A stretch of 64,000 nt of DNA. Source: Proteromonas lacertae. Its lineage: Eukaryota. The position numbers and the translations under genes are program-made. Numbering within the stretch: the stretch's first letter is position 1; every line of letters begins with the position of its first letter. The DNA is taken from contig NGBS01000302.1 in the NCBI GenBank assembly GCA_002245135.1, positions 62,001 through 126,000 on the forward strand, in the 5' to 3' direction. The notes under the pieces are model-generated. The model saw only the letters and a list, made by a program, of their open reading frames with translations, searched no databases and was not told the origin of the DNA. Of this stretch, positions 3,401-62,758 are shown one piece after another.

Positions 3401-5221
3401 ACCAGTCAATAACCTCAGTAATCAATGCATAGAATATATATCACCAATGGAACAAGTGTTTATGGATATTGCAATTACTGATTGTGATATAAGAACAGGT
3501 GTAACTACTCATAAAGAAGTAAGTCCTACTTCAATGCTGTCAGTATTAGCATCATTAACACCATTCTCTGATTTCAATCAATCTCCTCGTAATATGTATC
3601 AATGTCAAATGGGTAAGCAGACTATGGGTGATGGAGCAATGTCTTTAGCTTATAGAACTGATGGTAAATTATATAGATTAATTACACCACAAGTATGTAT
3701 TATATATATATTAACTATTAATATTTTGATTATGATGATGATAAATTGGTTTTTCCCATACCATTCGCAGTACTTAGCGACTTAATACTATCTTTATGCC
3801 AAAAGATAAGTATAAATGGGCTTTATTTCCTTGGATGTCTGAATAATCAATATTATTTCTCTATTACATTAATATTATATAAATAGGTGCCAATTACACA
3901 GAATCAAAATGAAAGTGTTTATCGTTTTGATGATTTTCCCAATGGTACTAATGCTGTAGTTGCTGTTATATCTTATACAGGTTATGATATGGAAGATGGT
4001 ATGATTATTAATAAAGATTCTTATGATCGTGGATTTGCACATGGTTGTCTATATAAAACAGAGTTAATAGATCTAAGTGAAGATAGATCTAAAAAGAATC
4101 ATGTTTACTTTAGAAAACCACCAATTACATTATTCTCTAAAAGAGATCAAATGGATAAGAGTATATTGAGAATTGATAATGATGGTTTACCTCCAGTTGG
4201 TATTAAAGTACAAGAAGGTGATGCTTTATATATTACCTTTGATGAATTAGTCAATAAACCGATTATACATAGACATAAGAGTGTAGAACCAGCATATGTT
4301 GATCAAGTTAGAATTATTGGATTTACAAGCAGATCAAGTGATAATAGTAAAAATACAAATTCAGATTCTTCTAATAACACATCAAATGATATTAAATATA
4401 TCACTAAAGTGAGTATCAAGCTAAGATATACTCGTAATCCAGTAGTTGGTGATAAATTCAGTAGTAGACATGGTCAAAAAGGTACATTATCATTATTATG
4501 GCCTCAAAGAGATATGCCATTTACTGAATCTGGTATTACTCCTGATTGTATTATCAATCCACATGCTTTCCCATCTAGAATGACTATTGGTATGTTAATA
4601 GAGAGTTTAGCTGGTAAAAGTGGTGCTTTACATGGTATATATGAAGATTCAACACCATTTCAATTCAATGAGAAAAATACAGCGTTAAAGTACTTTGGTG
4701 AACAATTGAAATCAGCTGGATATAACTATTATGGTAATGAAACAATGTATAGTGGAATATTAGGATGTGAATTAAAAGCAGATATATACATAGGTGTTGT
4801 ATATTATCAAAGATTACGTCATATGGTGAGTGATAAGAGTCAAGTCAGAGCAACAGGACCAATCAATCAATTAACAAGACAGCCAGTTAAAGGAAGAAAG
4901 AAACATGGTGGTATAAGATTCGGTGAGATGGAAAGAGATAGTTTAATAAGTCATGGAGCTGCATTTATATTGAGAGATCGATTAATGAATTGCAGTGATA
5001 GACATATTGCTTATGTATGCAAGAAATGTGGATCTTTATTATCAACATTTGCAGTTAAACCTGATACTAAATATTATGAATCTAATAAAAAGAAGTTTAT
5101 ATGTAGATATTGCAATAGTACGAGTAATTGTACTAAAGTTGTATTGCCTTTTGTATTCAGATATCTTGTAAATGAATTATGTGGAATGAATATTAAAGTT
5201 CGTTTAGATTTAACAAATTAA
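491..5221 (+). CDS. RPA2: DNA-directed RNA polymerase I second-largest subunit (multi-exon)
   Basis: Motifs [80 protein letters not shown]; Pol I-type wording; about 7 introns; apparent +1 indels near 1900 and 2375. Confidence 0.97.
2443..2520 (+). ncRNA. Candidate intronic box C/D snoRNA A
   Basis: AAATGT/ACATTT terminal stem, degenerate box C GTAATGA (2447), D' CTGA (2476), box D-like ATGA (2511), inside the 260-nt intron 2412-2671. Confidence 0.5.
2537..2609 (+). ncRNA. Candidate intronic box C/D snoRNA B
   Basis: AATGT/ACATT terminal stem, box C GTGATGA (2540), guide GATCGATAGG before D' CTGA (2570), box D-like TTGA (2601). Confidence 0.6.
2918..3042 (+). ncRNA. U14: U14 box C/D snoRNA, copy 1
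   Basis: Box C ATGATGA (2927), domain A CATTCGCAGT (2954-2963), domain B TTCCTTGGATGT (3019-3030) followed by box D CTGA, TTGATTAT/ATAATCAA terminal stem. Confidence 0.93.
3059..3181 (+). ncRNA. U14: U14 box C/D snoRNA, copy 2 (diverged)
   Basis: Box C GTGATGA (3068), identical domains A and B, box D CTGA (3170), TATATAAA/TTTATATA terminal stem. Confidence 0.93.
3726..3850 (+). ncRNA. U14: U14 box C/D snoRNA, copy 3 (same sequence as copy 1)
   Basis: Same boxes and domains as copy 1, in intron 3693-3886. Confidence 0.93.
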
Positions 5222-6961: not shown

Positions 6962-9900
6962 ATGGGGGGAAAATATGATAATAGGAGCAGTATTGTATGA
7001 ATAATTGAATAAATATTATTAGAAATTTTATAAATCTGTGTTTGGTTTTAAAGTAAGAATTTTTAACGTTATGATGTAGATTTTTAGTAATATAAACTCG
7101 ACCAAATATTTTGAAACGTATCATGTAAAGGATAAGAATAATTTGGAGAAAATAGTGAAGGTGTATGATAAACGAAATTATAATAATGAAATTCTATGTA
7201 ATTATGTATAATGAAATTATATTTCTATTTAAATTAGATGAATAATATGATTTTAATCACTTCCTTTCTGATTCCCTCTGTTGATGTGAGTTTAGAAATA
7301 GTGCATAACGATTTAATGATATGTTCAACATATTATAATAATGGATCAATAGAATTGTTAAATGAATTTAATGAAAAAGTAATGGAAAATATATTTAATG
7401 AAATAAGTTATGAATTGTGTTTATTAGATGAGTTGAATTTAATTCATGGAAGAATCAAACCTTCTAATATATTAATAAGAGATGATGGTAAATATATACT
7501 AAGTAATTACTGTGAAAATGACTTAAATGGATTAGAAAACAATAATTATAAAGAATTACTCTTCATTTCTCCAGAAGTATTGAAAAACAAAGAGATAAGT
7601 AATAAAAGTGATGTATTCAGTTTAGGTGTATTATTACATTATATGTTATTTAATAAAAATGTATTCTTATCTTGTTATTATAACCCCAATCTATCAAAAT
7701 ATATCAAAATTCTTATAAAATGTTTAAATCTAAATCCTGAGAAAAGACCAACAATAAGAGAAATTCACAATAGTCTTTCAAAAGAAAATAAAGAAAAATT
7801 GAATGAAGATGATATAATAGAAGTATTATTGAAAGATATAGATTTTCTATACGAATTAATATCGAATGATTATGAAATAAAAGATTCAATAATGTATGAT
7901 AAAATAATCACTGATAAAAGTATATATATATGTTATATTATTATTTCAATTATATTATAAATGAATAGAAAACTTAATAAAACTGATAAATCATTATAAC
8001 AGTTACGATAAATTAATCTACATTTACTATTTAGTGAATATAAGTTGGTATAATGAAGATAATAAACAGTTGATTGATTTATTAATAAATAGAGGAAATA
8101 TTTTTACACATTTTTTATATATTCATTCAGAAAAACCATTTCAATTGAATTTATCCAACAATAGTGATGATAACGATGAGGAAGAAGAGGAAGAGGAAGA
8201 GGAAGAGGAGGAAGAAGAAGAAGAAGAAAATGATTTTTTTGTTGTAGCAATTAATTTCATTCATCTTACTGAGTTACATTCATTGAATTTATATAATAAT
8301 CCGAAACTAACCAAAACAATTCAATCCTTTATCATATTTCCATATTTAGAAAGATTGAACATTTCTAAAAGTATAAATCTTCATAACAAAATGAAAGAAA
8401 TATCAATAGAATTATCCAATTTAGCTCATTTGAAGTCTCTAAAATTATCTTTCACTCATCTAAAAGATAATGATATGTTAATTTTTTTTCACTACTGTAA
8501 TACATTTAAAAAACTTTCGCAGTTATATTTATCCTGTATAATATGATATTTATGAATATATTGTAGATAATAACCTTGGTGATAAATCTGTTTTATATCT
8601 TCATCGATATATGAATAAACTTCCCAAATTAGAAAAACTGAATTTATGTGGAATAAATTTGAATATTGAAAGTGTAAAATTGTTGTTATATCATTACAAA
8701 TACAATTCAATTCCATTATATTTTTCATTCAAAAGTATTTTATTATTATTATTATTATTAGTCGATGAAAAATCATTCCGAAATGTTGATTGAGAATGAA
8801 TATAAAACAAATAATAGTTATTTTTATAAACAAATAGGTAAAAAAGAAAGTATAATAATCAATTGATATATATTATTTATAGAATGCTATAATAAATTAT
8901 TTAGTATGTATAAATCTAATCCAAATGATTATTGTCTTGGATTATTATTTGGTTTTGCTATGGCTAATCCACAATATAAACCTTCAATTCTTGAAATGAC
9001 TAAATCAAATTCAACAAAAAAGAAATTATTCTCCGTAATAAGTAATGATTATTATTTGAATCTTAGTAGTATATAAACGCTACTTTTATAATCTAATAGA
9101 TAATAGTCTAGATGAAAATGATATAGAAACCTTATGTGATTATTTAGATTATTGTCCAACACTGTCAATATTAGTAATTGCAAATAGTAGTCTTACTGAT
9201 AAATCCTTAATAAGACTGAGTAATGCAACAACAAAATTTACTAAGCTTCGACAATTATTTATTTCAGGTATTTATATAACATTTAAATATATAAATAGAT
9301 AATTCATTTACTTCAGAAGGAATAAAAGAATTATCAAAATCATTAAAGTATTTGACAGATGTGAGGATGTTAGGGTTCTTTAATAATATTGAAATTGGTG
9401 ATGAAGGTGTTGTATCAATTGTTAATTCTTTCAAATATATAAGAAAACTTGAGGCAATCAGTTTTCAAAGTATATAATATACTTAATTTATTCATATTGC
9501 AATAGATTGTGGATGTGAATCATTAGGACTAGAATCAATAAGTTACAATTTACATTATGTTACTAATTTGACTGTTTTTGCTTTGAAGAGTATATATTTT
9601 TGGTGTAAAATGTATAGATTTAAATAATTGTGAATCTTCATTTCAAAGATTAATGAAACAAGTAAAGCAATTGAGTTTGCTGAAGCGGTTATATCTAACT
9701 AGTATTAATCAATAGTATTTTTATTCTTAGCTTGTGAGATAAATGATAATGCATTTATCAATATTGTGTAGTAGTTTGAGTAAATTAACAAGTCTTGAAG
9801 AATTGAAATTAGGAGGTAAAATCTATTCTTTATGAATGATTTTTAAATAGATAATAGAATCAGTAGTATTGGATTAGAATATTTCATACATAATCTTCAT

Positions 9901-12900
9901 CATGTTACAAAACTCAAAACAATTTTTTTGTGGAAAAATTATATTGATGATGTTGGATTAATATCACTTACACATTCTCTTCATCTATTACCATTTCTAG
10001 AAACACTAAATTTAAATGGTATTATTAGATATTTTTTTAACAGTATAGGAAATAAAATAAGTGAAAGAGGATGTGAAATATTATTAAATAGAATGGAATG
10101 AATTACCAAACAGAATCGATGTTGATTTAAAAGGCAATATAATAGATACAATAGATAAACCAGATCTTCTAAACAAATTAAAACAAATAGATACTAGCTG
10201 TATAATAATTTCTAATTGTTTAATAATTGAAAATAGTTTTATGTTTAAGTGAAGTATATGATTTATTAAAGACCAAAAATTGTTATTCATATAAAATGTT
10301 ATTACAGTATGTTGTTGATAGTAATGGTATATATATAATTTTATTTATTATTGAAATAGGTTTATTAGAACATATAGTAGAATCATTTAATTCAACCCGA
10401 AATGATATTCTATTTACTTTTTTATGTAATTTAACTATGTGTTATAATGGATTTAAGAATAGATTGATGAAAATGATTGATTTCGAGAATGATAATTTAA
10501 GATTGAACTATTTCAAATGTATAGGAGATGAATATGATTTTAAAGCGGATAGTATGTGTTGAGATATATTAATTGAAATAGATAAAAGAATTACAAAAGA
10601 AGATTCAGAATATATAGGGAATAATATTGATTGTTTGAAAGAATTGGCAGCAGTTAATTTTAAATGTATAAACTACTGCTTTTATCTTAGCTTGTGCATT
10701 AAATGATGGTAAAATGAAAAGAATATTAAATGCATTATGTCGATCACATCAATTAGAATATCTTTGTTTAGGAGAAAACAATCTAAGTTCATCAATTTTA
10801 CAACCAATATCTAGAGTGATAATTAATAATAAACTCTTAAAATGTCTCATACTCTTTGGTATTTAATTCTAAATATTATTCTTTCACTAGATAACAGTTT
10901 ATATGATATAGGAATAGTAGAATTAAGTAAGAGATTAAGATATATTCCTAAATTAGAAATCATATCTTTGTCAAGTATAATTATTCTTTCTATATCCTAA
11001 TAGATAATAGATTTACTACAAAAGGAGCAATAGAACTATCATCCAATTTATCATATCTGAAAAAAACTAAGAAAAATAAACATTGGAATAAATGATATTG
11101 GTAATGAAGGAATAAAAAGAATAAGTAAAGAATTTAAGAATCTATCAAATTTAATAACAATTGGTTTTAGTGAAACAAATATAAATGATATTGGATTAAC
11201 ATATATATCCAATAATCTTTCTCACTTAAAATATTTGGAGGAGATAGATTTATCATTTAATGATTTCACAGAAATAGGGATAAAAGAATTTTCTAAATCG
11301 GTCAGAAAATGTGAAAATGTCGAAGAAATAGATTTTTCTGGTTGTGGATTAGATTCTATATCATTTTGTGTTTTACAAAAATTGTTAGTTTGCCTAGACT
11401 AACCTCAGAAACTTTCAATTTAAATTGTATGTTTTTTCATTATTTGTTGAATAGATAATTATATAGGAAATGATGAATTAAATGATTTGACTATAACTGA
11501 TGATATGTCTCGCTCATCATCAATATGCGAAATTAGATTTAAAAGTATTTTCTATTATTTTTTTTCATAATTTATTATAGATAATAATATGAATGACAAA
11601 TGTTTAATCAATTTATGTAAATTCTTAACGCAAGTATCAAATCTCAGATTATTGACTATTTCAAGAAATAAAATATCGAATGATGGAATAAAAGAATTAT
11701 CAAAACAGTTTTCTGTTCTATCGAAACTAGAAGAATTATATTTTGATGTAAATGAAATAACAGATGATGGTTTAAAATACATATCAGATTCAATCAGCAA
11801 TCTTTCGAATTTAAGATTTCTTTCATTGTCATGCAATAAATTCAATTTGAATGGATTTAAATACATGTCAGAATCGTTGCATTTCTTAGCTGATTTGAAG
11901 ATGTTATATTTAGATGGAACAAATTTAACAGATGAATCAATGAGAATAATTTGTGATAATTCCAAATATTTACCTCATTTAGAAAGATTAAATGTTGGAG
12001 ATAATAATTTAACTTCAATAAGTTGTAAATATATATCAGATTCATTTGTTTATATTCGAAGATTAAAATCACTTTACATTAATGGTATTTTTATTTTTCT
12101 TATCATTTTTATTGTTATTTTAGAAAATTCAATAAATGATCTGGGAATGAAATACCTATTTAAGAATATCAGTTATATAATAGATTTAGAATCATTAGAT
12201 GTGGGAAGTAAATATTTTCATTTATATATCAATAGGATGTAATTTAACAGATTTATCAATTGAGATAATATGTAATTCAATAAATTCATTGATTAATCTA
12301 AATACACTCTATCTGTCTAGTATTTATTTTACTATTTATATTATGCTATAGATAATGAATTAACAGATAATTGTATAACAGATTTATGTAAATTCTTTAA
12401 TCCATTAAATGGATTGAAATCCTTACATTTGAATAGTATGTCAATTTTTATTACTATTATCATTAGATAATAAGCTAACATGTAAAGGAATAAAAGAATT
12501 ATTGAAATGTGTTAAAAAATGTTCAGAGAGTTATGATATATTTATAACAGGAAATATAATGGAAAATGTAAATGAAGGATTATTAGAAGATATAGAATTA
12601 TGCAATCCAAATTATAGATGTATAGAAAGAATAAAAGAAAAGATAAATAACAAAGAATACAGTTATGAAAATGAAGATGATTATATTGATATTATTAAAA
12701 GTATCAGTTTATTAGATGATATTTGTAGAGAATACAATTATGATAAAAGAAAAGAAAATGAATATTTACTTTTAAATATCTGCCTATTTTATTCGAAACA
12801 AACTAGTTATATTCATTGAAAACACAATATTTGATTTACATACAATATATTATACTCTTTTATCCTCAATAAAAGAAGATCATTTCAATTGTTTTAAAGA

Positions 12901-13210: not shown

Positions 13211-15857
13211 TTATATCTCTAATGGTTGATATTGTTGGATTTGTTCAGCTGTCATAGTTTTGGCTTTATATCGACTTGGTGGAATTGGTTTTATCATTGG
13301 ACGATCTAAAAATTCAATTGGAATTCGTTGGAATCGAGAAGCTTCAGGATTAAATTCGGGAGTTTGAATAAATGTTAAAAATAAGTGTTTTATTCGAGTT
13401 CTTAAACCCTCCAAATTTCGACCTAATCTTCCACGATTTAACATATCAGCTTCACGATCGATTAATTCCACCAATTCTCGAGTTAATTTTGTATCAAATT
13501 CTTTTATTGTCCATTTTATATGCAATAATATATCTAATCTTTCATCTATTGATTTCTTATTATCGCATAATCCAACATATAATTCTTTCAATTCACTAGC
13601 TCGTTTTGTATAAGGAGTTTCAATTGTGGCGATTTCATTATCTCCCATTGCCCATTTCTTATCATTTGACATTAAATCTAACATTCGATTAGTATTTTCT
13701 TCTTTGTTTTCTTTTGCAGCTTGACATTTTAATCGATCAATATTTTGTAATAATTGAGTTTCTTTGTATAATACTTGAGCTAATGCTTCTAATCTTTCTT
13801 TATCACCAAGACTACTCTCTTTTATACGCTTATTCTCATAATATCGCCAGTTTTCTAATTCATTATATAATATTTCAAAATCCTCAGTTGTTCGTGGATG
13901 CATTCTTCTCTCAATTTCACGATGTCTTTTCTGTTCAGCTCCATCATCTTCTTTTTGAATATTTTCATCTCGTTCTTTATTTATTCGATCTCTCTCAGCT
14001 CTTAATTCTTTTGCTCTTCGACAAGCTATGAATTTTCTCCAATATCTTTGAATTACAATTGTTTTCTCAAATTTTAATTCTTCTAATTGTTGTGCAGTAA
14101 AATAAGGACCAGGAACTATGATTTTATCTTCATCGATTATCAATATATAAATCTTTACGTTCCATCTGTGTTCCATGTTCTCGTTTTGATTGAATACTTC
14201 GAGTTTTAAATTCATATGTTTGAGTTTCTCGATGGCTTTTAGATGGTTGATTTGCCCAATCAGTTTTCATTCGAGGAGTATTGGTGCAAGCATCATGATA
14301 TTCTAAACCACTTTTCTTCTTTCGAAATCCTCCAATAAATGGCTTTCTAATTGTACAAGGAGTTACTTCAACATCAATCGCTTTAACAATTTCACCACAA
14401 TCTTTGATTTGAACTTTTAATGTATAATTTCCATTACTTAGTATTATTGGTGATGGAGGTTTTCGATCACCTTTCACTTCGATTATATATTGTCTTCTTA
14501 ATTCCATTCCTAAATCTATTGGACTTAGATCATCAGTTACTGTTATAGCTATTTAAATATATAAATATATATATATAATTAATAATGTATATAATTATAC
14601 AATTATAAACTAATTTTGAACCTTCCAACATCTTAAATTCTTCATCTACTTTTCTATGGATTATTGAAAATTTTATATTGATTGGAAATAGATAAGTTGC
14701 TACTATTTGACTTTTCATTTTTGGATCATGAATAAATGATAAACTAACACATTCTTGTTCATCACTATTGTTACTTATATTATATTCATCTTCTTCATAA
14801 TTTGAATCAATATAATCATTGTTATTCATATCATAGGGTTGAGTTTGTTCTTGAAATGTTTCTTCATTTGCTTCTTCTTCATTATCATCTTCAGAAGGTT
14901 GTTGTAAATAGATTAATTCTTCAGCTTCTTTTGTTGGAGCTACTGTATCATCATATTCATGCTCCTTCAGGTTGCTGTTCTTCTTCTTCTTGTTGTTGAA
15001 TATTTGTGGGTAAATCAACTGCTACTGTTGTTACTAAATCACCTTCTTTAGATTCCATTGGAGCAGCTGATGGAACTTCAACTAAGATTTGGTCTTCTTT
15101 AGATTCTTGTACTTCAGATGGAGGTTCTTCTACTGGCATTTCTTCTTTAGATTCTTCTTTACTTTCTTCCACTTGTTGTTGTGTTTCTTCAGCTGCTGGT
15201 TGTTCTTCTACTGGCTCTTCCTTTGTTTCTTCCTCTGGTGGTTGTTCTGTAATTACTTCTTCTTTAGATTCTTCAGCTTCTACTGCTGGAGTTTCTTCGG
15301 TTTCTGGTTGTTCTGTTGGTTGTTCTTCCTTTGACTCTTCAGTTACACCTTCCTTTGCTGGTAGTGGCTCTTCTTTAGTTTTTTCTGGATTTTCTATTGG
15401 TTCTTCCTTTGATTCTTCTATTGGAGCTTCTTCAGAAGGTGTTTCTTCTGATGGTGGCTGTTCTATTGGTTGTTCTTCTGATTGCTCATTTTCTTTACTC
15501 TCCGATTCTACAGCTGCTTCCTCTTTCGATTCTTCTATATTTTGGTTTTCACCTTCTTCTGTTTTTGGCTGTACTTCTTCTCTTTCATTATCTTCATTAT
15601 CACCTTCGGCTTCTTCAGTCTTAGCCCTCCTCTGCATCTTTTGTTTCATCTCTTTCCTTATATTCATTTATATTATTATTTTCTATATTTTCATTTTCAA
15701 TTGTGTTGTTTTCTGATTCCTTCACTTCTTCAGCTTCTTTTGATTCAGAATTATCTTCAGTTGGTTGTATATCTACATTTTCTGATTTACTTTCTTCTTC
15801 TGTATTGGGCTCTATATTTTCTGGATTATCTAAATTCTCTGTTTCCTCAGAATTCAT
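13211..15857 (-). CDS. IQUB: IQ and ubiquitin-like domain protein (ciliary radial-spoke IQUB/FAP253 family) with long acidic N-terminus
   Basis: KPFIGGFRKKKSGLEYHDA, RETQT, IQRYWR IQ motif, PRTTEDFEILYNELENWR, IDREADMLNRG, FIQTPEFNPEA; ORF pieces joined by indels and one intron. Confidence 0.9.
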
Positions 15858-21974: not shown

Positions 21975-22111
21975 CTTCCTGGTTTAAAAGAAATGACAAA
22001 AAATGTGAAAAATGATTTGACTTGATCTGAGGCTTGATTGTTCAAACAATAATCAAGCCAATTAATTTAAACTTCAAATAAAACAATGAAAATACTAGAT
22101 AAATGTATATA

Positions 22112-25100
22112 TTATTCGATCTGTAAATCAGTAATGAAATTTAATTTTAATTTATAGGAAGCTATATCCTTTTTAGAAAGGTCATTATCTATTCTCAAAT
22201 TATAGAAAGAAATATATATACTTTTAATATACAAAGAGTGAAGTCGAGTTAGTTGAGACATATTCTCTACTATCAACTTCGCACCTTTCACACCAATATG
22301 ATTATTGTTTAAATTAAGTAATTGAATCTCAGGCAAAGAATTCAATCCTTCTAAAATATACTTCATACTATCATTAGTTAAATTATTATTACACAAAATC
22401 AACTGACTGATTAAAGGTGTATTTACAAACTCAGTTGATATACATTTCACACATTTACTGTCTATTTCATTATTAGATAAATCTAAATAACGTAGATTTG
22501 GGATTGTAACTAAGTTAGAAGCTAGTATTTGAATTTCATCCACTTTCATTTTGATATTTGAAAAAGTGATTGATTGTAATTTTGGAAGTGAAATGAAACT
22601 GTTACAAATGAAAGTTAACATTTGAGTTGTATAGTTTTGATCTAATAAAAAAATAAAACAGTAGATGTTTATACTTGAATAATTCACACTTTCTATATTC
22701 TTCAATAAAGGTAATTTATCTGTTATATACTTTATTTCATCCACTCTCAATGTACAATTAGAAAAATTGAGTGAATGATCATTCTTTATACTGTTGAAAT
22801 ACTTTTCATGTGTTTCATTTGAGAAATGTATTTCTGATTTTAAGGAAGGTTTTGTTGTTGGAAATTCCATTATAATATTCAATAGCAAGAATAATAGATG
22901 TTCAGAATGAAAGTTGTTATACTCAGAAACTAGATTACTTCTTTTTATAAATTCTATTTATAATATAATAATATATGATTATAATTAAATATACCATCAA
23001 CATCTATTTCTCTAAATGATGTAACAATTTGTTTTATGTAATTCACATTAATACAAACCAAATATAAGAAGATTCTTGTGAATTTTGGATCTGTAGAATT
23101 CAACAATATATTCTCTACATCTTTTATTTCTAACTTCTTTATTTCATTTACTATTCAAAAAAATATCACAATGAAGAATATACTATCAAATTGATAATAA
23201 TGTGTGGATGTATAATACTTCAATAACACAGAATACATAAACGAATTTAAATGTGAACATAAGTTGAATAACACATATAAATTTGGTATTTTATCAATCT
23301 GTTTCTTCAAATATTTAATTCCTTCTGGATATACATCATCATAACAGAAGAACAGATTCTGTAGATTTGGTAATAAATCAATATTCTTACATATATACTT
23401 TACACCTTTTTTACCAATACAAACACCACTTAAATCAATAGCATATTCACTTCTAATGCTGAAGAATATTTTCTGTTGAATTTCATTTTCATTAAAGTCA
23501 ATTTGAGTATGTATAAATTCAAATGCAATTGGATAATCTAAACACAAATTCACTAATAAGAAGAACAATTTATCATTATTCTCATTATTGTATAATTTGA
23601 TGATAATTCCTAGTAAATCTGATAGTTTTATTGTAATAAATGAATCAATAATTGACTGCAATTCTCTAATGTTTACACACATTAAATATAGATAAATTTT
23701 GATTAATCGATCATCTGTGGAATATAAAAAAACTTTCTCACAATCTGTTATTTCTAATTTCTTTATTTCCCTCTCATTATATTCACATGAATCTGAGTAG
23801 TAATACTTTATTAATATCTTGTAAATATCTGTTGAAAGATTTGAACATAATTTGAATTTACTGTGGATATTTGGCAGTTTCTTTATATTCTTCGATAAAT
23901 ACTTTATACTATCTTCATTTATATCCTCTTCTATCAACATTATTAAACATAATTCATATATATATATATATACCATTGAGATACAAATTCTCTAATTTTG
24001 GAATAAAATTTAAATGATCACAAATAAAATGAATTCCTTCAATTCCAACTTTCACATTTCTATAATCCAAAGTATAATTCTCTCTTACACCTTTCATTAT
24101 CATCTTATGTAAATCATTCTTAAACTCTAATAAACACATTATATAACCGAAATAATCATAATATTCCATGGATATGTTGAGGAATAAAGATAATAATTCT
24201 TCTAAATCATGTGAATTATAAACAGTTGCTAATTGATTTAATACACCTAATAGAAAGAATATAACTAAAAATATATGATACTTTCAATCGGAAGTGTATT
24301 AAAACTATCAAATATTTCTTTAATATCAACAATATGAACACATAACACATAGTAATATATTCTTGTGAAATTCTCATCTGTACAATTTAAAAATACATTT
24401 TCAACATCTTCTACAGGTAATTCAAGTATTTCTTTAGTCTCATATTTGAAGAAATTGTCAGAATAGTAGTACTTTAATAATATTTCAACTTGTTTAGTAT
24501 GTGCGTATTTAGCTATTTTGTATAAATGATATAAGTTTGGAATATGTTCTATATTCAATCTGAGTGATTTATAGCCATGATGACCAAATGTATTATCTAA
24601 TCAATATAATAATGAAATAAAAACATATAAATATATAAATACGAAACAAATCCAAATACTGCAATTGTGTTAATGGATATAGATTATCACATAATATCTC
24701 TATTCCACTTGATCCAATCTCATTTGATTGTAAATATAATGTCTTTAAGCGAGGAATTAATTCAAATGAATTTGATAAATATTTTATACCTTCTGATTCT
24801 ATTTTATTGTCATTCAAATTCAAATGAAGTAGATTTGGTATATTTGATAAACTTTTACTAAATAGCTTCATATCTCCTTTTACTATTTCATTTCCACAAA
24901 GATTCAGTGTTTGTAATGAAAACACTGATGATAAATTGGCTGATAAGTATTCAATACCAAAACTACCTATTTTACATCCTGTCAAATCTATTTCTATTAT
25001 ATTCGGTTCTAGCTGCAAATTACATAATAATTGATGAATTCCATAATCACTTAGATTATTATCTATAATATAATGATATTATAAGTTATATATACTTATA

Positions 25101-26932
25101 AATCTCAATATTGTGATATTGTACATCAAATGGAATATACTCAACAATTGATTTATTGATTTCTCATTCCAATTTACTTCCCAAAATGAAAATCCTTTGA
25201 ATGGTTTAACTACTTCCATATGTTTACGAAATAAAGTCAATAACTTCAATATATCAGTATGATCGATATTATTTATTGTCTTATAATCACTATTAAAATC
25301 ACAAATAACAGTATCTATTAAATGAAACGAATATATATTATACTATAAAATGATAAAACATCAACATGTTTTACTAATTCCAATGTATCAATGAAATCTT
25401 CATTCTGTAGTTTTATGGAAGAGAATCTAAACTCTGGTAATGGAGGTAATAATGGTAAAGATGATGAAACAGTATTTCTGTCATAAGTTTCACCTAAACA
25501 AAGATTAATTGATTGAATATATATATTTATATATACTTGTAATTGTGAATGAATCATTTGGTATTATTCCATTGAATAAATACATATATGTATGATTATT
25601 TTGTATAATGTTATATAACTGATTATATAAATCTGGATTGTAATAGTATAGAGACAATAATAAGCTAAATAGTTTTGAGTTGTTTAGAATGTTGTTGGAA
25701 ATATTCGAATAATTCATTCTCTAGAGATTTGTTGGAGTATAAATAGTCGATTACTAGATAATTATATCTAACATTACATAAACTATTTACAACTTTTTCT
25801 TTTAATTCATTTGGAAAATTTGATACTATTTCATAATAAATAACCATAATATATATATACATTTAATTTTCAATATTTAATGACAATAATACAAATGTAG
25901 TAATATCAACCACTTTCTGATCAGCTGATGAATATAACCATTGAATATATGAACTAATATTATATTTCTGTAGTTCTTTCATATCTTCGGGTTGTAATAT
26001 TAATATTTCATCATTTTTATAATAATATTTCAGCAAAACTGCATTTAATCCTTCATCAGATGTTAAAACTAAATAAAAACATATATCAATAGATTTCTTA
26101 TACATAATGTGTTTTGCTCTAGAGTAGAAGATATAATATCATTTTTTGTCACTAACTTAAGTGCCTCAGAATCAATTAACTCTTCAGTTTTTACTTTTGA
26201 CCAATCAATTTGCTTTAAATATTCTGTATAAAATTCTTCCAATTGTGTTATATGCATTTCCCTTTCTATATGAGCATATGCATAATTGAAGTAATATAAT
26301 AATTGATTCAAGAAAAATGTTTCATTTGTTACACTATCATGAGCTACACTTACCATTGTCTTCAATTCTTCAAGATTATAGTTAATTATGTTTGTCGAAT
26401 TTAATACTTCTGTTATATTAGTTTGGATAAATTTGTCTATTGCTAAATGAAGATCTTTAACCATAGGACAAGACAAATATTCTTTATAATCAAGATATTG
26501 GTTGAAAGTAGCTAACGTAAGATTATCTTTCATATATCTATCATTATAGCAAGACATAATTATACTTTTGAATATCATGACATAATTCTTTGTCATTCAG
26601 TGCAATTGAGGTAATTAATGCATCCATCATATTATCTGGATTTATATCTGCATTACCATATCCATAATATCTAAACATTACATTTATTCCATTCACAGTC
26701 ACAATATCAGGTAATTCAATTGCTAAACCTGCTAATGGATCATTAATAAGTCTATCAAGTATTGCATTTTGTGCTGATAAGATTGATTTAACACCTTGAA
26801 CTCTTGTTCCCTTCACTATAAAAATAACGTCTCCTTTTCCTTTATTAACAAGATCAATTATAATTCTACATATAGAAATATCACATTATACCCTTGAGAT
26901 GGTATTTTCTTTGATAGCTTCATTGGCATCAT
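22112..26932 (-). CDS. BTB/POZ(-BACK) plus RI-type LRR modular protein
   Basis: GDVIFIVKGTRVQGVKSILSAQN BTB start; LRR blocks at about 24600-25000 and 22200-22780; internal repeats such as LLKYYYS..EIK.L.I.DVE. Confidence 0.7.
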
Positions 26933-27066: not shown

Positions 27067-30000
27067 TTATTTACCAATATATCTCACCTTCTCTTTCTTC
27101 ATCTTGGATATAACACTTGTATTTCCTTGTGCAACACTTAATCTTGTCAATGTGGCATCAATTACTCTAACAGATTCATATAAAGTGGTTAATTGCTCTG
27201 TTAATTCAGAAAAAGTTGATATTTGTTCTCTAAGCGTTGATTTTATCTTATTCACATCATCCAATAATCTTTCATTGATAGGATTTTCATCTTGTGGACT
27301 TATCTCTTTATCATTCGATTTCTATAATAAATATATAGAATGAATATACTTTATTCTTTCTCTTTGTTTCATTTGTTCTTCTATACAATCCATTTGGTGT
27401 CCAGTATACCAAACCATCTCTTCCTTCCATCAAATCACCCCAATAAGCTTCATCAGATAAATCATAAATCACACATCTTCTTTTTAAACCATGTTTATTC
27501 TTTTTATCAGTCTGATGGTCTAAATAACTATCAGCCATATACTCCGCCATTAAAATATGCCAATTTACGTATGACTGATCACGAATGATGGGATATACAC
27601 TAGAAACAATAGCAATAAACAAATTCACCAAAATTAATGCCAATATCACATACACTACGAAATAAACAGTAAATAAAAACCTTCTATCTAAATTGAATAA
27701 AACAGAAAATCCATGATTAAATGCTGAGCAAAATAAATGAAAGAAGGTTGGAAGTATTTGATAGAACTGTATAATCTCTGGACCATATCCAATAATATAA
27801 GAAAATGTTAAAATCATCATTAAAAAGAAGAATACACAAATATATAACAGAACATCAATATCAACTACAGTTCTTAATACAGCTAAAATCATTGGTCCCC
27901 ATCCAGGAATTAAACGCAAAAACTTTATAAATCTCATACCTAATAAGAAGCAGATAAAAGAGATGAAATCTAATTCATATTTCATCAGTGCAATTAATGA
28001 TGAAAAATCTGTGAAATCAGTTGATAGAACATCTACTGTGTGATTTTTATACTATTTAAATGCATAATATATAACATATACAATAGCATTAGTGATCATA
28101 TCTAATATAGCAAGTGTTACTAAACAGAATATGATAATCCAATCATAAATCATCCAGAAATCTTTAAATTGATCACCTAAACCTTTACTTTGAATTATAT
28201 ATCTTACTTTGAAAAACATTTCAAATATAATTTCTACTATAACAATTAACTCAAAAATTAACTATATAAAAATATATATATATTAACCTATACAGATGGA
28301 GGAAATCTATTATCTGAGAAAATAACAGTCTTTACTGTATGTTTTGGTATTACTTCACCTGTCTGTAATCTTTCAACAATCAATTCTATTTGACAAATAC
28401 GTTCTGTAGCTGGATTGAATGTATGAAAATGATAATTAATCGATTGTGTATAATTATTGGATAAAGCAGTTAATAAATGTGATTGATATTCTTTTTTTGC
28501 TTCATCTAAATCAAATAATCCCAAATTCTTCTTAAAAACTGTATTAACATCACCAGTTAAACAGATATTAGTAATTCCAGCAAGTTTTACCCTGTCAAAA
28601 CTTTCACATTCTAATGTTTCATATGCTTTTTCTTCTATATATAAAGCACCAAATACATAACTATCAGCATGATAAGTAGCTGGTTTATCTATTTATATAT
28701 TAATAATATGTAAAATATAAAATATTATATTTATATATATATATACTATGATCAAACATCCCTGTAATTTTCGAATCTAAGAAATATGTTACTGTCCATT
28801 CTTCAAACTCTGCAAATGATTTGATTGATGTAAAACCATAATTATCCAAATCAGAATTTACTTGATATTGATACATAGTTTCTTTTTCTGAATGATAATC
28901 TAAAAATGCTGGTGTAAAAGCTAAAAACACCAAATAAGCAATAATAAATGTAACAACTTCAATAGAAAATTGTCTTAAACCAAATGCCATTTTGTGTTTT
29001 GTAACTTCAGGAGATGTTGACAGTAATTCAACCACTTGTGCATTTCTTAATTTAGAGGAAATTGGTTCATCTGGTTGCCTGTTCTTCAAATCTTTTGATA
29101 CAACATTTGTCCATTTGTCTTTTAAATGAATATCTGCATAATAGCACTCCACTTTTTTCTGAGATTCATATTGAACAATCTTCTTCTTCTTCTTTGGTTT
29201 CTGTGTATTTTTCTTTCTCCAAAATTGCCACCATTTAACTTCAGACTGTTTTTGTTTTTTCTCTTCTTCAATATCTTCCACTTTTGGTAAATTATATCCT
29301 GACACAATACTTCGTTTTATTAATGACAATGCATTTGGACCACCACTTAATGTTTGTGATTGTTGTATTTGAGATCCTTTTAAAATGGATGGTGTATTTG
29401 AAAATGCAATACTTTGTCCTGGCTGTTTTAGTATTGAAGAAATACCAACATTATTATTATTTTGTTTTATTGATTTACTCTTTGATTCCTTGTTCTTTGG
29501 ATTATTATTATTATTATTATTATCTCTATTTTCATTGTTATTCTCTTCACTTTCTCCATTATCTTCAGTTTTTTTCTTTTCGTTTTCATTTATTGCTGCT
29601 GCAATTTCTTTCAATAATGCTCTTCCATATGGTGTAATTTGAGTTCCATCTTCTTTCATTGGATTTACTCCATGATCTAATAACACTTTAATAACATCAA
29701 TATGACCAGCTTTTACAGCTAAACTTAATGGACTAAATTCATTTATATTATACCTATTAACCAATGAAGTATTACTTTTACCTTTATCTTCATTCTCTTC
29801 ATCATTTCTTTTCTTACTACCTTTACCTCCATCAGGTGTAGTTCCTCTTGTGACTATTGAATTAGCATTTGGACTTTTATCATGCATAAATGGAGTTTTT
29901 ATTATACTTAAATATCTCAAAGATGACTGATTAGTACCTGTTGTATTTCCATTTGTATTAGTGTTTGTATTGGTATTGGTATTGGTATTAGTGGTAGAAG

Positions 30001-33000
30001 AAGGTGTAATCGTCGCTGTTAATGGCGTTTTTGTACTTTTCATTTGTTCATGCATATTTCTAATCACCATTCTTGAGTTTAACGTTGATTTCTTATTATT
30101 GACAGGTGTTTCTGGTGATAATAAATCATCTACATTTGTTGATTTAACTGATGCTCTATCATCAACACTTCTACTTTCAATTAATTTGGTATTAATATTT
30201 GGTAATACTTCATCTTCAGTATGATATAAACTATCAATATCCATATGTTTATCACTTAATAACAGTGCTAAGATTTGTGCATGACCATTTGCACAGGCAT
30301 GATGTATTGCTGTAAAACCTCTTTTATCTTCCACTTCAATTTTTGCTCCATTTCTTAACAACAATTCACAGATTTTGAAATTTCCTAAGAATGAAGCTAA
30401 CATCAATGGAGTTGTTCCATTATTATCTGTTAATTCAATTTGTGCTTTGTTCTTTATCAACAATTCACAGATTGCTATAAAGCCTCTTTTTATAGAAATA
30501 TATAACGGAAATTGTCCAAAACTATCTTGTGTATCAATGTTGGCTATAATACTATCTTCAGATAATATCAATTTAGGAATAATATCAATTTGATCATTTC
30601 TACAAGCTCTTAACAAATACAAATTAAACAATTCAATCTTATTTCTTTCAGTTTGATCAACATTCTCTTTCAACGTTTCAATATCATTTACATCAACGTA
30701 ATTATCATTTAAAGCTTCTACTCCTTCTTTTTTCTTTATTGTATATCCTAATTTCAAAATGCCTCTAATCATTTCCAATGCATTTACTTGACACATTTCT
30801 TTTTCAGATTGTGTTAAATATTCGTATGGTACTAATTCTGAACTGACTTTCTCATTATTAGCAGCTGCTGGATCTGGTGAATACTTCCATCCTGCTTTTA
30901 TCTTCTCTTGTGACCATTCTTCATGTGTATTCTTAGATAATAAGTGAACCAACGGGATTTGTTCCATTGAAACTTCTATATTTGATGTATCTAAAGGTTC
31001 TGGAACATATCTTCTTGTTCTATATAACCAAATAATAAATAAAATAACTATACGCTTTCTTTATATTATGTTCATTCATATAATTCTTAGCAATATTATC
31101 AGAAACACATTCTATATCATATCCTAAATATTCAATCAATTTCACACTATGTTTAGCAGCATCAATATCCCATTTCTGATCTTCAGCTGACAAATCACAC
31201 CAAGCCTTTATCATTGGATGTATTTTCTTGTTATTATCTCTCTTTGGACCATATTTCCATCCATTTTCTATCTTTTCAGCACACCATACTTCATGACTAT
31301 TTTGTGATAAACATTGTATTAATGTATTTAAATATATATTATCTGGAATCGAAGATGTATCAATTGGATTTGGAACATATTTATAACCTTCAGATTCTCT
31401 TTTATCTACACCAAGCAAAGCTTGACATGTATTCTTTTGACAAGCACAATAAGTGTCTTGAACTAATCCAACATAAGAAGTTTTATGATTACCATGACAT
31501 CTTGTTTTACAGATTAAACAGATATTTGTATCACACTCATCACAGTGATATATATGCTGAGTTATTGGATTAGTAAATGTAGCAAATGAGAAATGTACAA
31601 CTGTGTGTGTCTAAATAAAACAATAGTAATATTTATTAAATATAATAATAATAATAATATATACATTTCATTCTTTTTGTTAATTTCAACAACAAATCAT
31701 CAATCACAATCTTATTTTCATCAAACCTCAGCAAGCCTTCTACTACATCCACATCACCACTTAATAGTGTATAATTCAATATTTTATTAACAGGAACACC
31801 AGTACATCTAGTAACATGTGAACCACCTAATATCAAGGCAGAAATACAATCGAAATTATCTCTCAAAATCTATTAAGAATAAAATAAAATAAAAAAACAT
31901 AATATATACAGCATAATCTAATTCACTATATCCAGTCTCTTCATTAATTCTATTACATAGCAAAGGCTCTTGCCAAATATCATAAGTGGTATCTTGTAAA
32001 CAATAAATAGAATCACATCGATCATTCCATGTGATAATATCTAAAAATGAATATCCTTGTTTCAAGATCTTATTAATTGGCATTGATTGTAAAACTTCAA
32101 AATTTGTAGAACCATTGACTTCAGATAATAATCCAGTTTTACCTAACAAAAACATCGGACTCCATCCTAATTTATCTTCAGCATTCATTAATTCTATTTT
32201 ACCTTCTAAACTACTCACTTTATTAAATAACATCCTCATTAATTCCAAAGAAACATTCTCATGATTGTCACTAGTATTTGTACATTTTAAACACATAAAC
32301 AAAGGTGTAGTTTGATAAAATGATTCAACTAAAGGATCTGCACCTTTCTCTAATAGCAATTCAACCACTTCCATATTACCTAACTCACAACTAATCATTA
32401 AAGGAGTATAGCCATCTACTAAAGATGAAATATTTACATCAATATTACCTATTATCAATAATTGTTTTATTACATTAATATCATTCATTCTACAAGCAAT
32501 ATGTAGTGGTGTTTCTCCATTACGATCTACTCCATTTGGTTCAATATCACATTCTATTAAATACTTCAATACGAAATCTCTTTTCGCTTTTATAGCACAA
32601 TGATAAGGTGTTTCATTAAGAGGAGGAACATGTCCACTTAGATATTGACATTGATTTAGTAATTTAGTGACAATTGCATCAGATTCATTATAAATGGCAT
32701 GGCACAAATCCAATGTTTCAGGTGCTATTAAATATAAAATAAGAAAAATATAAATATATACGCAATTCTTTAAAGCAAACTATATAACTCAAAATACTCT
32801 GATCATTTAAAGTTCCTTCACTTCCTCCTAACACAATTTGATCACCAGATCTTACAACATCACTCTTTTCATACACATTAAAACATATATTTGTAGTATC
32901 AGTATAAACAGCGTAGGAAGTACGAGTAAATTTATTACTATTTAACCATTTCACTTCGAAATTAGTAGCAGGCCAAAGGATATACAATCTACACCTAATT

Positions 33001-34019
33001 CTTATTGTTAATGACATAAAATCTGAAGACGTGTTCGTTCTATCAACATGATGACCTTTTATATAAGGACAGCCTCTTAATTCATCACTTATTCGTGTTA
33101 TTTTCTGTTTTCTATCTGTCCAAGGCTTTTCACCAACATCTAATGGTTCATTATTGATTTCATATTGTCCACTTCCTTTACAAGATATTTCACAGATTGA
33201 ATCTTCTATTACTAATGAAGAATTCATTTCTTTTTCATATATTTGAAGTAATTCTAAACCTGTTGATAAAACTGTCCTTACTTTTTCATATTCTAATTTT
33301 TTATAAACTTCTTTCATATCCTCTTGATTAAATCCTTTACATGCATCTGTTATACAAAATATCTTTGCTGATGGTGCATATATGCCACAATCTAATATAT
33401 TAAACTGAATACCATATTCAACAGCTAATCCACAGAAATACACTTCTTTTATTGATTTTTGTGTGAATAATTCCGATAGAAGACCTTGTTCATTCTTTTT
33501 ATATTCTCTAAAACCAGAATCTATTATTCATATGTTAATTGATATATACAATTATCGATTGTTGGATCAGTTCCACATCTAACTATTATATCAGAACCTC
33601 TTACAAGAAGATCGGGATGTAACTCAGCTCCATGTGTTCCTGCTACACAAAAATCAGTCCAGAGAAGCTGAGAACCAATTATAGGAACATGACTAATTTT
33701 ACCTTTAGCATAACCCTAAAATATTATGTTATACAATTTTATTAATAAATATACTGGATTGTTTGAACAAAAAGAACTATTATTAATAATAAAGAGAAAA
33801 ATATACCAATGATTCAGAGGATGCCACAGCTTGTAATATTACTGTGTAATCAAAATCTTTACGCCTTAATTTATTAATCACAGGGATAATATCAACAGCA
33901 TTTTCAATAGGAACGGCTCCGCCTTCAAAGTAATCGTTCTAATGTAAAGATATGTATTAGTTATGTTATACTTGAACATCTACAATAACCAAAGCCCTTA
34001 CTATATGTTCTTTTGACAT
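27067..34019 (-). CDS. Multidomain PKD/TRP-type cation channel: pseudo-nicotinamidase, beta-rich domain, ankyrins, UBR-box-like Zn finger, 2 RyR repeats, ankyrins, 6-TM pore, coiled coil
   Basis: Exons splice through GT-AG introns with two single-base corrections (about 33830 and 31590); ALVIVDVQNDY; GETPLHIAC; YVPNPIDTS..NSHEVW..GWKYG; RFIKFLRLIPGWGP and LVNLFIAIV S4-S6 signature. Confidence 0.85.
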
Positions 34020-52939: not shown

Positions 52940-55591
52940 ATGATAAAAACAAATAAAAGATCAGCTTTTTTTCCTGATCAAGATGAAGATTCAACAGATA
53001 CATCGATTTCAGTTCCAATTACTAACAGAAGCAATTATCGTTCAAGCAACACAACTGTATCAAAAGTTCCATATTATCCAACACCAACAACAAGGATAGT
53101 AAAGTCAAAAATATACAATAACACTGCTTTTAGCTTTCCCGCTGTTGATACAATCTTGTACAATACAGAACCAATTGTATAATAGAAATCTTATAAAATT
53201 GTATAGTCATCCAGATTCGTAATAAAATACAAAGATTATATCCCAGATGTACAAATAGAGCCAATTCTTTTCTCACATCTTATGAATTACAGTTCAAAGA
53301 ACAAATTTTATATGTCTGCAACAATTCAAGTAAATAGTATCTTATATTATTGTATCTATCTTAAAATATAGAAAAGCCATCTGTTAATTTCACTGCATAC
53401 AAAGAAAGAAAAGAAAATAATAACAGTTCAATACTTTGTAGTGTCTATAAAGTAGGAGGTATATATATATCAATAATAATAATAATAATCAATAGAATAT
53501 GCCAATATAAATGATATACTATTCTCAAAAGAAGAATTTGAAGAATCTTTAAAATCCGTAAGTAGTAACATCATCAATAGTGATTTAAAATATCCTTATG
53601 GTTTACCTTATTATTATACATTATTAAAAGTAAGTCATACTACTAACAAACTATGGTTACATTTCAATATAATCTATCCATCTTATACATTCTCTTATAC
53701 ACAAATTAAACCATTGAAATTGTACGATTGTCCATTATCTTCACAGTTATTAAAGAATAGTGTGTTTAATAATAGATCTGAGGAGTTATTTAATGGATAT
53801 TTAACTATGGATGCATCTAGACAAGTTGTTCCATTGAAGTATGATTCACCAACTACCTATGATTATCCATTAATTGGTATATGGATTGCTGTTACTGATT
53901 CTTCCATTATGACAAATTTATCACATCCATTTATAGCTAGTTTGTGTATAAAATACTTACAAGATACTAAAATTAAAGTATTATTATTGTTTTTATATTA
54001 TTATTATATATATATATATATATATAGGATAGAAGATTTACTAATAATTCTCACTTTTTAATGATTTTATTCAATTGTATTACAGGTAAGAAATCATATA
54101 AATGTTATGAGTGTATTCCATCAATGCAAGAATATGGATCAGATGCAATTCCCATGCAATATACACATTCAATTTATAATGTAGAAATAGACTACGATTC
54201 TATTAAAAACAATAATTATTATGATGATAATAAAAGCATAAAGTGTATTTGGGAAGAAAATAAGAATTATAGAGAAAGAGAATATTTTAGAGATACTCTA
54301 TTTAGATTACAAAATAATGATAAAATATTACCACCTTTACCTTATAATAATTCATTAGAAAATGATCATTATATATCACCAGCAATGATGGTAGAATTAC
54401 AGAAGAAGAAAATTCCATGTAAAGAAGAATTATCAATTGAAAGATATGAGAAATTAATAAGGAAAGAAAATGGATTAAAATCTAAATCAAACAGTGATTT
54501 GTATGGTGAAGATGAAGAATTAAACTTATCAATGAGTGAATCAATACCAAAACGAATAATGACAATATCTCCTGAAACTATATACAATGACAATAATAAT
54601 AATAATAATAATCCATTTAAGAATGCAAATGTAATCACAAAGATTAATGAAGAATCTACCTCTTTAAAATCACCAACATCACCACCTAAATCTGATATTA
54701 ATATGATAAGAACAATGGTTCAACATATGACTCCAGATACATCACCAACACGAAAGGAACAACAGAAGGAGAAGAAGAAGAAGAAGGATAAGGATGAAGA
54801 ACAATATGAAACACCATTTATACCAATAGAAACAAAGGAAGAAGAAGAAGAAGATGGTGATGAAGAAGATGATGGTGATGATGGTGATGAAATATATGGT
54901 ATTATAAATAATAATAAAAATATTGAAAATGATATAAATAAATCACCTCCATATGTTATTAATAATAAGAATGATAAAAATAGTCATAATCCTGAATCTT
55001 ATTATTTGGATTTGTTAAAGAAGAAAGATGAACAAATAGCACAAATTACAAGAGAATAATGAGAAGTTAATATCAGTAATATTAGGAAAGAAAGATATTG
55101 GATGTTTGGATATTAATACATTACAGACATTATTGAATAAAATGTTGGAGAAGAATATGAAGAAAGAGGATGAGAATAATGTTAGAATATTGAAAGAAGA
55201 ATCAATTCAAACTGATAATAATATCAATAGTGAAAAAGAGAATGTAAAAGAAGAAGAAGAAAAAGATGAGAATGAGGAAAAGAAGAAGAAGAAGTAGAAG
55301 ATAAAGTAAATAATACAAGTTCATTTTCATCAACATTTATATCTGAAGATAAATCACCTACAACTAAAGCATCAATAATTACACCACAATATCAATCACC
55401 TATCAGATTTTCAAAGCCAATTGTTCCATTGCCAATACAAAGAAGTAGTCCAGAAACAAGATCAGTTCATTTACAGTATATATTTATTATTATAATTATA
55501 TTATTATAGAATTCCTATTGATGATGATATTAGTGATACACCATCCTCTGGTGAAAGTTATTTACAAAGTGTATTGAATGAAGATATTTAA
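52940..55591 (+). CDS. STIL N-terminal domain protein (centriole duplication factor-like)
   Basis: GYLTMDASRQVVPL..D...YDYPLIGIWI...LCIKYL resembles the STIL_N core GFLTMDETRK...PLVGIW; low-complexity and coiled-coil C-terminus. Confidence 0.7.
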
Positions 55592-59047: not shown

Positions 59048-59156
59048 AGGGAAATGATACATATATTATATTATACTTATATTATTATTAATTTGTTTTG
59101 TTTTTGTTTTAAAACAGTAAAATAATAGGAAAAAACACTCTTAATAATTAGTTAGA

Positions 59157-61404: not shown

Positions 61405-62758
61405 ATGAAGGTTATACTGTTATCTGTGTTCATATATATTGTTTCTACTTCATGTCCAAATCTATGTAGTCGTCATGGAAGCTGTTCTTCCAATGGTTTG
61501 TGTAATTGTTACCCAGGATGGACTGAAGGCGATTGTTCAGGTCGTATATAGTTTCAAAAATTCTATTTTGCTAGGTACATGTCCTTTTGGTGAACCATAT
61601 GCTGATACACAAGAACATAGTGAAGATCGTTACATTGAGTGTAGTGGTCAAGGAAACTGTGATAGAACAACAGGCTTATGTGAATGCTTTGATGGATTTG
61701 GAGGAAGTGCATGTCATCGTACTTTATGTGAAAATAACTGTAATGGTCATGGTTTATGTTTACCAGTTAATCATATCGGAATTAACAATGACAATTATTT
61801 AAACAACTATTATTATTACACAGGTAAAATGGTTAATGCTAAATATGAGAGTTGGGACAAAGATCAAAGTTATCAATGTGTATGTGATGAAGAATATACA
61901 GGATATGATTGCAGTTTAAAGAAATGTGCAACAGGATATAAACAAACAAGTGATTGTGATGCTCCAGCTGAATATTATCAAAAAATTGCATTTATGGGAA
62001 AAGAAAATCCAACATGTCCAAACACTGATAATAATAAAGGTTCAGGTGATGATAAAGCTTCCTTTTTAATGTCTGGTTGCTTAGCTTATGCCAAATATAT
62101 GGATCAATTCAATAGAACATGGATAACTAAACCATTTAATATATTTAAAGGATTTAAAAGTAATGATTTAGAAAATTATGTTAATAGAATATGTGCTGAT
62201 AAAGATGAAACATGGAATAAAGAATTAAAAGATTTCCCATCATTAGAACAAGCATTAAAGATGTTACCACCAGGTACAATTGATGTAAAATCAGTTAAAG
62301 TTCAACCACCAGAAACTGTAAAAACATCATTTACAATAACAATAGAATATGGAAAACAACAAACAGGAAGACAACAACCAATACAAATATTAACAAGAAA
62401 AGACTTAACATTTGATTGTATAAAGAATCTATTAGAACCAATTCCATCATACTTCACAGATAAAGAAGATAAGTGTATTTCAGATAATTGTAAAGATACA
62501 GATAAATGTGAAGAAATAACAGTTGATAAATCTGATGATCAGTCTTGGTGGAAAAGAAATATAAAAACACCATTGACTGATAACAAATCTGATTATATAA
62601 CCTATTTAGAGAATGTAATATTTAATAATGTAGATACTGTATATGTTCCTCCATTAGAATGTGCTAATAATGGATTATGCAATAGAGAGACAGGATTATG
62701 TGAATGTTTCACTGGATATTATGGATTAGCCTGTACTGAAGCTTCTCCAATTCAGTAA
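61405..62758 (+). CDS. Secreted EGF/tenascin-repeat protein of the tubular mastigoneme (Ocm1/Sig1-like) type
   Basis: Signal peptide, CPNLCSRHGSC, ECSGQGNCDRTTGLCECFDGFGGSAC, WD...CVCD..YTGYDCS and a terminal ECANNGLCNRETGLCECFTGY EGF. Confidence 0.75.

Follow-up and report, generated by a model that had tools for sequence, protein, structure and literature searches.

A TRP-superfamily channel gene of Proteromonas lacertae with a predicted inactive nicotinamidase domain at its N terminus

TRPM2 carries a C-terminal NUDT9-homology (Nudix) domain, a fold of NAD metabolism reused on a channel, and its ligand, ADP-ribose, has been demonstrated. An isochorismatase-like domain with a conserved core is reported in 14 of 18 craspedid choanoflagellate TRPVs (bioRxiv 10.64898/2026.06.15.732245; PMC13663828). 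Worm and fly TRPV heteromers respond to nicotinamide as an agonist, in work that left the binding site open (PMC5064019, 2016). Nicotinamidase limits this signal, and an insect nicotinamidase is reported to work in the same neurons as TRPV (PMC9683716). The PKDRR channels have a pair of RyR repeats placed after the pore and filters of the form LGA or AG(D/E) (PMC7399828, PMC4820453); the eukaryotic homes of RyR repeats given in the latter source are RyRs, PKDRRs, and oomycete kinases only. Here we analyze a gene in a stretch of 64,000 nucleotides (nt) from Proteromonas lacertae (assembly GCA_002245135.1, contig NGBS01000302.1, positions 62,001–126,000; hereafter the window). It is predicted to join a nicotinamidase fold that has very probably lost its activity to ankyrins, RyR repeats, and a TRP-type pore.

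Ancestry and active site of the N-terminal domain

Sequence comparison traces the N-terminal domain to PncA. With a profile built from six bacterial PncA proteins, the spliced domain reaches 143 bits (E 4.7e-46); among 500 shuffled versions of it, the highest score is 2 bits. Its exon-by-exon matches in the PDB are nicotinamidases, and a related protein, P0010, matches NCBIfam NF008623 (E 1.2e-28). The initial annotation of this DNA had proposed that small exons at ~33330–34019 splice to such a fold. Exons and motifs lie where it placed them, but the domain extends to ~33250 rather than ending at 33330.

Relatives were found with three protein searches and form seven clusters: six from Logan and Bremia PKDRR-A (P0008). 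Five Logan clusters (P0001, P0009–P0012; 40–68% identity) match the nicotinamidase and beta-sandwich part, and one, P0007 with member P0035, matches the middle region. Two of the searches were limited to proteins of ≤2000 amino acids (aa) and the third to 138–445 aa, limits under which a full-length relative of ~2170 aa could not appear. Sensitivity was low, since the search with the middle region returned just one oomycete PKDRR. A profile built with the ankyrins included was overrun by ankyrin matches.

The active site of PncA consists of a catalytic triad, Asp-Lys-Cys, and a metal site, Asp-His-His (PMC3581539, PMC3025910). In the window, D10 and H54 (numbered as in E. coli PncA) are kept, and D52 is replaced by L, H86 by F, K111 by C, and C156 by G. 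The triad thus retains Asp and has Cys for Lys and Gly for Cys, and Leu-His-Phe/Tyr replaces the metal site. We scanned these positions in 35 sequences, namely the window model and 34 proteins from Logan, with P0008 excluded. The nucleophile position is Gly in all 19 sequences that cover it (three clusters and the window). The Lys111 position is Cys in 11 of 11, the same 11 have Tyr or Phe at the His86 position, and Leu occupies the Asp52 position in six of six (one cluster and the window). The initial annotation had read the same retained Asp and the same four replacements from the window and had allowed that better reads might restore Lys and Cys. Because the losses are conserved in relatives, which carry them too, they are not read errors. 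We conclude from these patterns that the N-terminal domain is very probably not an active nicotinamidase.

Gene model and domain order

The gene is encoded on the minus strand, and its features are listed by position.

27067–34019, minus strand: whole channel gene, 13 exons, ~2170 aa, 12 GT-AG introns
34019–33972, 33938–33807, 33776–33755, 33715–33550, 33520–32762, minus strand: exons 1–5
32724–31910, 31869–31665, 31610–31054, 31019–28747, minus strand: exons 6–9
28688–28294, 28261–28082, 28051–27350, 27321–27067, minus strand: exons 10–13
33250–34019, minus strand: PncA-type nicotinamidase-fold domain (aa ~8–212; P0010 66% identical)
33828–33834, minus strand: frameshift 1, one extra base near 33830 in exon 2 (orthologue P0010 is a single frame across the site)
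32766–33197, minus strand: beta-sandwich (aa ~228–376; from a model of orthologue P0010)
31910–32614, minus strand: first ankyrin array (Pfam Ank_2, E 4.5e-23)
31434–31605, minus strand: UBR-box-like zinc finger (in an orthologue, match to UBR boxes of UBR4 type and of FBXO11, E 2.4e-5 to 8.4e-5)
near 31590, minus strand: frameshift 2, one extra base in exon 8, inside the zinc finger (P0007 and P0035 read through in frame)
31113–31379, minus strand: RyR repeat 1 (Pfam RyR, E 2.1e-23; match to RyR2 862–947)
30737–31009, minus strand: RyR repeat 2 (Pfam RyR, E 1.1e-21)
30254–30616, minus strand: second ankyrin array (Pfam Ank_2, E 1.5e-28 for the exon; 66% identical to P0035)
29000–30250, minus strand: low-complexity linker with one ankyrin at 29666–29734 (the ankyrin is kept in P0035, the remainder is not)
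28294–28957, minus strand: S1 helix and S1–S2 extracellular polycystin (TOP)-like domain (hydropathy; S1 kept in P0035)
27554–28261, minus strand: S2–S6, pore helix, filter (~27713–27735), and a TRP-box-like Trp after S6 (PKD_channel, E 1.2e-5)
27067–27321, minus strand: last exon, probable C-terminal coiled coil (weak Pfam matches to unrelated helical families, E 0.017–0.078)

The start ATG is at 34019 with an in-frame stop directly 5' of it, and the terminal TAA is at 27069–27067. Introns are 28–58 nt long with a GC content of 0.117, versus 0.294 in exons. The locus is compact and AT-rich, with GC of 0.20–0.34 per kb; oomycete GC values are far above this. Except at two one-base frameshifts, the ~2170 codons of the spliced product contain no internal stop.

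Frames of relatives, each open across several domains, link the parts of the gene. P0010 corresponds to model aa 40–374, P0001 to aa 125–649, and P0035 to aa 399 through S1. Their overlapping frames, which tile across different clusters, bridge introns 2–8 (7 of 12) and both frameshifts, and exon 9 of the window alone spans RyR repeat 2 through S1. Introns 1 and 9–12 are bridged by no relative and are supported by continuity of frame and domains. Because single frames of relatives overlap across domains, the fusion is more than a splice prediction, and the sequences leave us highly confident that the nicotinamidase part and the pore belong to one gene. Locus scans of metagenome, prokaryote, and viral collections gave no confirmed match. 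An in-frame acceptor at 31601 was considered and dropped, as P0007 shows that the first Cys of the zinc finger needs the acceptor at 31611.

Both frameshifts are probably assembly errors, because relatives read through them and because the essential gene for RPA2, the second subunit of RNA polymerase I, is also frameshifted in the window. RPA2 shifts frame by one base at ~2378 (plus strand) inside an invariant stretch, with one frame matching yeast Rpa135 505–521 and the next 519–531 (E 0.52 and 0.098; the queries are short, but both matches are top hits and contiguous). Two further one-base frameshifts in RPA2, at ~1245 and ~1910, are apparent by eye. Indel errors in the assembly therefore call for caution with other genes in it that appear broken.

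From N to C terminus, the domain order is nicotinamidase domain, beta-sandwich, ankyrins, UBR-box-like zinc finger, two RyR repeats (aa ~790–1000), ankyrins, linker, S1, polycystin-like domain, S2–S6 (pore at ~1590–2000), and tail. Pfam gives Isochorismatase, Ank, two RyR, Polycystin_dom (weak, E 0.0025, below the cut-off), and PKD_channel (E 1.2e-5, above it). The families that the initial annotation proposed to search for are all found in the expected order, and its run from nicotinamidase through ankyrins and RyR repeats to the pore is one gene, though the frame in this assembly is broken by the two one-base insertions, of which it made no mention. The domains it named are present, but it overlooked the beta-sandwich and the zinc finger. 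Conservation varies along the protein: identity to P0010 is 66% in the nicotinamidase domain versus 43% in the beta-sandwich, and identity to P0035 is 36% in the first ankyrins and 53% in the RyR pair.

The beta-sandwich was recognized from structure. In the P0010 model, where its predicted local distance difference test (pLDDT) values are mostly 70–90, it superposes on the C-terminal accessory domains of a GH2 enzyme (6HPD 848–990; VIA Z 17.5, root-mean-square deviation [rmsd] 2.2, 139 residues aligned) and of GH138 (6HZE 732–873; Z 11.3, rmsd 3.1, 128 residues aligned), and the match ranked after these has Z 5.1. Foldseek gives the fold an E of 1.9e-9. Stand-alone bacterial look-alikes of 151–170 aa score 0.95–0.96, and a bacterial origin of the family is possible. 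No Pfam family and nothing in a plasmid collection matched. The fold that the model shares with accessory domains of CAZymes is no indication of function. The beta-sandwich should be cytosolic, because it is located before S1.

The channel part is, by its matches, a six-helix TRP-superfamily channel. S4–S6 match TRPC3 best in the PDB (E 1.2e-8) and also TRPC6, and PKD2 is absent among 16 matches up to E 10. The part further matches TIGR00870 (E 5.3e-5) and Atlas Ion_trans/PKD/YVC1 clusters (0.94–0.95). Signals of subfamily are mixed, with a weak polycystin domain on one side and ankyrins, a TRP-box-like Trp, and best matches in TRPC on the other.

Other genes in the window were recorded alongside. 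A PARP1-type gene (zf-PARP, PADR1, WGR, regulatory, and catalytic domains; 34136 to ~37350, minus strand) precedes the channel gene, with 117 nt between its end and the channel ATG. PARP releases nicotinamide, yet genes here are tightly packed, and we did not count the adjacency as evidence. Introns of RPA2 (2893–3188 and 3701–3869, plus strand) hold three copies of a ~120-nt unit bounded by TGATGA and CTGA that resembles box C/D small nucleolar RNAs; two of them share 99% identity across 169 nt, and none has an Rfam match at gathering score. IQUB-like (13211–14266, minus strand; E 4.7e-50) and STIL-like (53489–54061, plus strand; E 1.2e-13) genes suggest a flagellated, centriole-bearing organism, and GatB and PPR genes point to an organelle genome. 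The RyR pair makes a stramenopile plausible, and the low GC speaks against an oomycete. Blastocystis was weighed as host and rejected: IQUB and STIL genes are present in the window, the genus retains almost no flagellar genes (PMC12129017), and its downstream motif shows no enrichment (4 found, 5.45 expected). Leucine-rich-repeat genes at ~7200–12300, 22100–25800, and 57200–59050, some of which encode kinase-like N-terminal parts, point to a possible expansion of this family, and a teneurin-like EGF-repeat protein is encoded at 61409–62758 (plus strand).

Possible roles of the N-terminal domain

The reading we prefer, whose chances we regard as evenly balanced, is that the disabled domain acts as a built-in small-metabolite sensor of the channel. 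The pocket wall is retained relative to PncA (Trp83, Tyr120-Ser121, Gly-Leu-Ala 150–152, Tyr155, an aromatic residue at 15, and Asp10), and the segment after the former nucleophile is almost invariant in relatives. The conserved losses and the higher identity of the dead domain (66% versus 43% in the beta-sandwich), which speaks for selection on it, also favor this reading, and the TRPV findings provide a biological precedent. Lying ahead of S1, the domain would be cytosolic and present in four copies per channel tetramer. Leu and Phe/Tyr in the metal site, together with Gly in place of the nucleophile, may have left a hydrophobic, metal-free pocket that does not hydrolyze. A metabolite bound there would bias gating, with binding relayed to the gate via the scaffold of ankyrins, zinc finger, and RyR repeats, as is the case for ADP-ribose in TRPM2. 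The ligand is most likely a pyridine from NAD turnover. Nicotinamide itself is a doubtful candidate; other options are nicotinate and a relative that is methylated or ribosylated.

Several points weigh against a ligand sensor. Three of the four substitutions are represented by a single cluster of relatives, and the retention of Asp10 is seen in the window, with no relative covering the site. In both structure models, most of the nicotinamidase part has pLDDT <50, and the best Z to the isochorismatase family in a structure-model search is <5. The domain and S1 lie about 1400 residues apart. In the Acinetobacter enzyme, the metal bound by Asp54, His56, and His89 directly tethers nicotinic acid, and in a model of M. 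tuberculosis PncA a pyridine ligand is tethered to the metal through water (PMC3025910). Two of the three metal ligands are hydrophobic here and canonical nicotinamide binding is, as judged from these residues, lost; the case for nicotinamide is weakened because the site of the tethering metal is filled. Conservation alone shows no ligand binding, because the zinc finger and the second ankyrin array match the 66% identity of the domain, and a structural or protein-binding role would also be compatible with strong conservation.

Such a role is the first of the alternatives. The domain may bind no small molecule and instead be a scaffold for oligomerization or the docking of partner proteins (in assembly, trafficking, or tethering) as part of an extended cytosolic platform for interactions, which we consider possible but somewhat unlikely. 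Occupation of the metal site by Leu and Phe/Tyr and loss of both catalytic residues are compatible with it, as are similarly conserved neighbors that are interaction modules (ankyrins, UBR-box-like zinc finger, and RyR repeats, the last described as protein-interaction sites in PMC4820453). The retained pocket wall and Asp10 and the near-invariant stretch after the nucleophile, however, would exceed what maintenance of a fold usually needs. Alternatively, the domain could be rewired rather than dead, with the Cys at the Lys111 position and Asp10 forming a new nucleophile or a redox switch, and the protein acting as a channel-enzyme or oxidant sensor. That Cys is found in the window and in the P0010 cluster, and Asp10 and the Gly-Leu-Ala motif of the oxyanion loop are kept. 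But its side chain is far shorter than that of Lys and would miss the oxyanion hole, the water-activating metal is gone, and a Lys-to-Ala mutant of the Oceanobacillus nicotinamidase, which refolded poorly, kept ~1.5% activity (PMC3581539), and we regard rewiring as improbable.

It is just as improbable that the locus is a decaying pseudogene or that two separate genes, one for the nicotinamidase part and one for the pore, have been joined by the splice model alone. The two frameshifts and the introns that no relative bridges are what such an explanation can draw on. Against it, ~2170 codons are free of premature stops beyond two single-base shifts, and RPA2 has a shift of the same kind inside the invariant stretch that matches Rpa135 (505–531). 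In relatives, single frames also connect ankyrins with the domain on one side and with S1 on the other, and exon 9 runs from RyR repeat 2 to S1.

A metabolite sensor remains our preferred reading. A TRP channel that bears a conserved but disabled nicotinamidase offers a small soluble domain for a direct test of ligand sensing. It would be the second case, beside TRPM2, in which a fold of NAD metabolism was reused on a channel. We suggest a broader scenario with reserve and consider it unlikely as a whole: that a protist lineage made a vitamin-B3-gated channel when it joined a nicotinamidase of bacterial type to a TRP pore and turned the disabled enzyme into a receptor, the glycan-type beta-sandwich and the RyR pair serving as further sensors. 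If true, then together with the choanoflagellate TRPVs, nicotinamide sensing by TRP channels would have been invented repeatedly, and its binding domain would be defined and soluble. If the domain is merely a scaffold, what remains is an undescribed channel architecture of modest interest.

Comparison with PKDRRs and other TRP channels

The initial annotation had called the gene a candidate Ca2+ channel that is PKDRR-like, and neither label is borne out. The filter has no Gly in either register, and between pore helix and S6 the sole acidic residue is Asp1974. This filter, which is known from one sequence, neither supports nor excludes Ca2+ permeability; a nonselective pore or a modulatory subunit would suit it better than a Ca2+-selective pore.

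Like PKDRRs, the gene couples a tandem RyR pair, with two Pfam RyR matches, to a channel of TRP/polycystin type. Identity to the pair of Bremia PKDRR-A is 36% (E 2e-44), and the nine residues entering repeat 1 are identical. The order is reversed, however: the RyR pair precedes the pore here, whereas in Bremia PKDRR-A the PKD domain is at 170–603 and RyR starts from 985. The pores are not closely related (E 0.01, 19% global identity, phmmer score of 2 bits, under the best shuffles) in a comparison that took in one PKDRR-A and zero PKDRR-B, and the extracellular exon shows no similarity to Bremia PKDRR-A. The LGA or AG(D/E) filter motifs of PKDRRs are missing. We therefore rejected PKDRR membership on the position of the RyR pair, a pore closer to TRPC3 than to PKDRR-A, and an unlike filter. 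Concern that oomycete PKDRRs already carry the nicotinamidase-fold domain is not substantiated by Table S3 of PMC7399828, where neither an ankyrin nor an isochorismatase domain is noted in any of the 47 PKDRR rows. The resemblance of the RyR pairs suggests that a common pair was shuffled onto different pores. The reversed order bears on how PKDRRs were assembled, and RyR repeats are now found in a eukaryotic channel beyond the RyRs and PKDRRs named in PMC4820453.

Other known systems each share a part of the architecture. Bacterial PncA (NF008623; PDB 2WT9 and 1ILW) is 29–37% identical over ~200 aa, long lid loop included, but here Cys, Lys, and two metal ligands are replaced and the domain is fused to a channel. 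TRPC3 and TRPC6 match in S4–S6 and the TRP-box region and have N-terminal ankyrins; the present channel differs in its large S1–S2 extracellular domain, its filter without Gly or an acidic residue, and its extra N-terminal domains. TRPM2 likewise bears an enzyme fold of NAD metabolism on a TRP channel, whereas the role of a ligand here is proposed from sequence. In the open-access literature searched, we found no description of an N-terminal disabled nicotinamidase of this form or of the whole architecture. Novelty is nevertheless below that assumed in the initial annotation, because choanoflagellate TRPVs with isochorismatase-like domains are already reported. As in the reported TRPVs, an ankyrin-bearing TRP channel is fused to a domain of the PF00857 fold with a conserved core. 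There the domain is C-terminal; here it is N-terminal and followed by beta-sandwich, zinc finger, RyR repeats, and a pore with an S1–S2 extracellular domain. From the position of the domain rather than from a tree, we infer that the two fusions are independent. The gene is thus a variant on a known theme, a TRP channel with a fused enzyme fold, and not a PKDRR.

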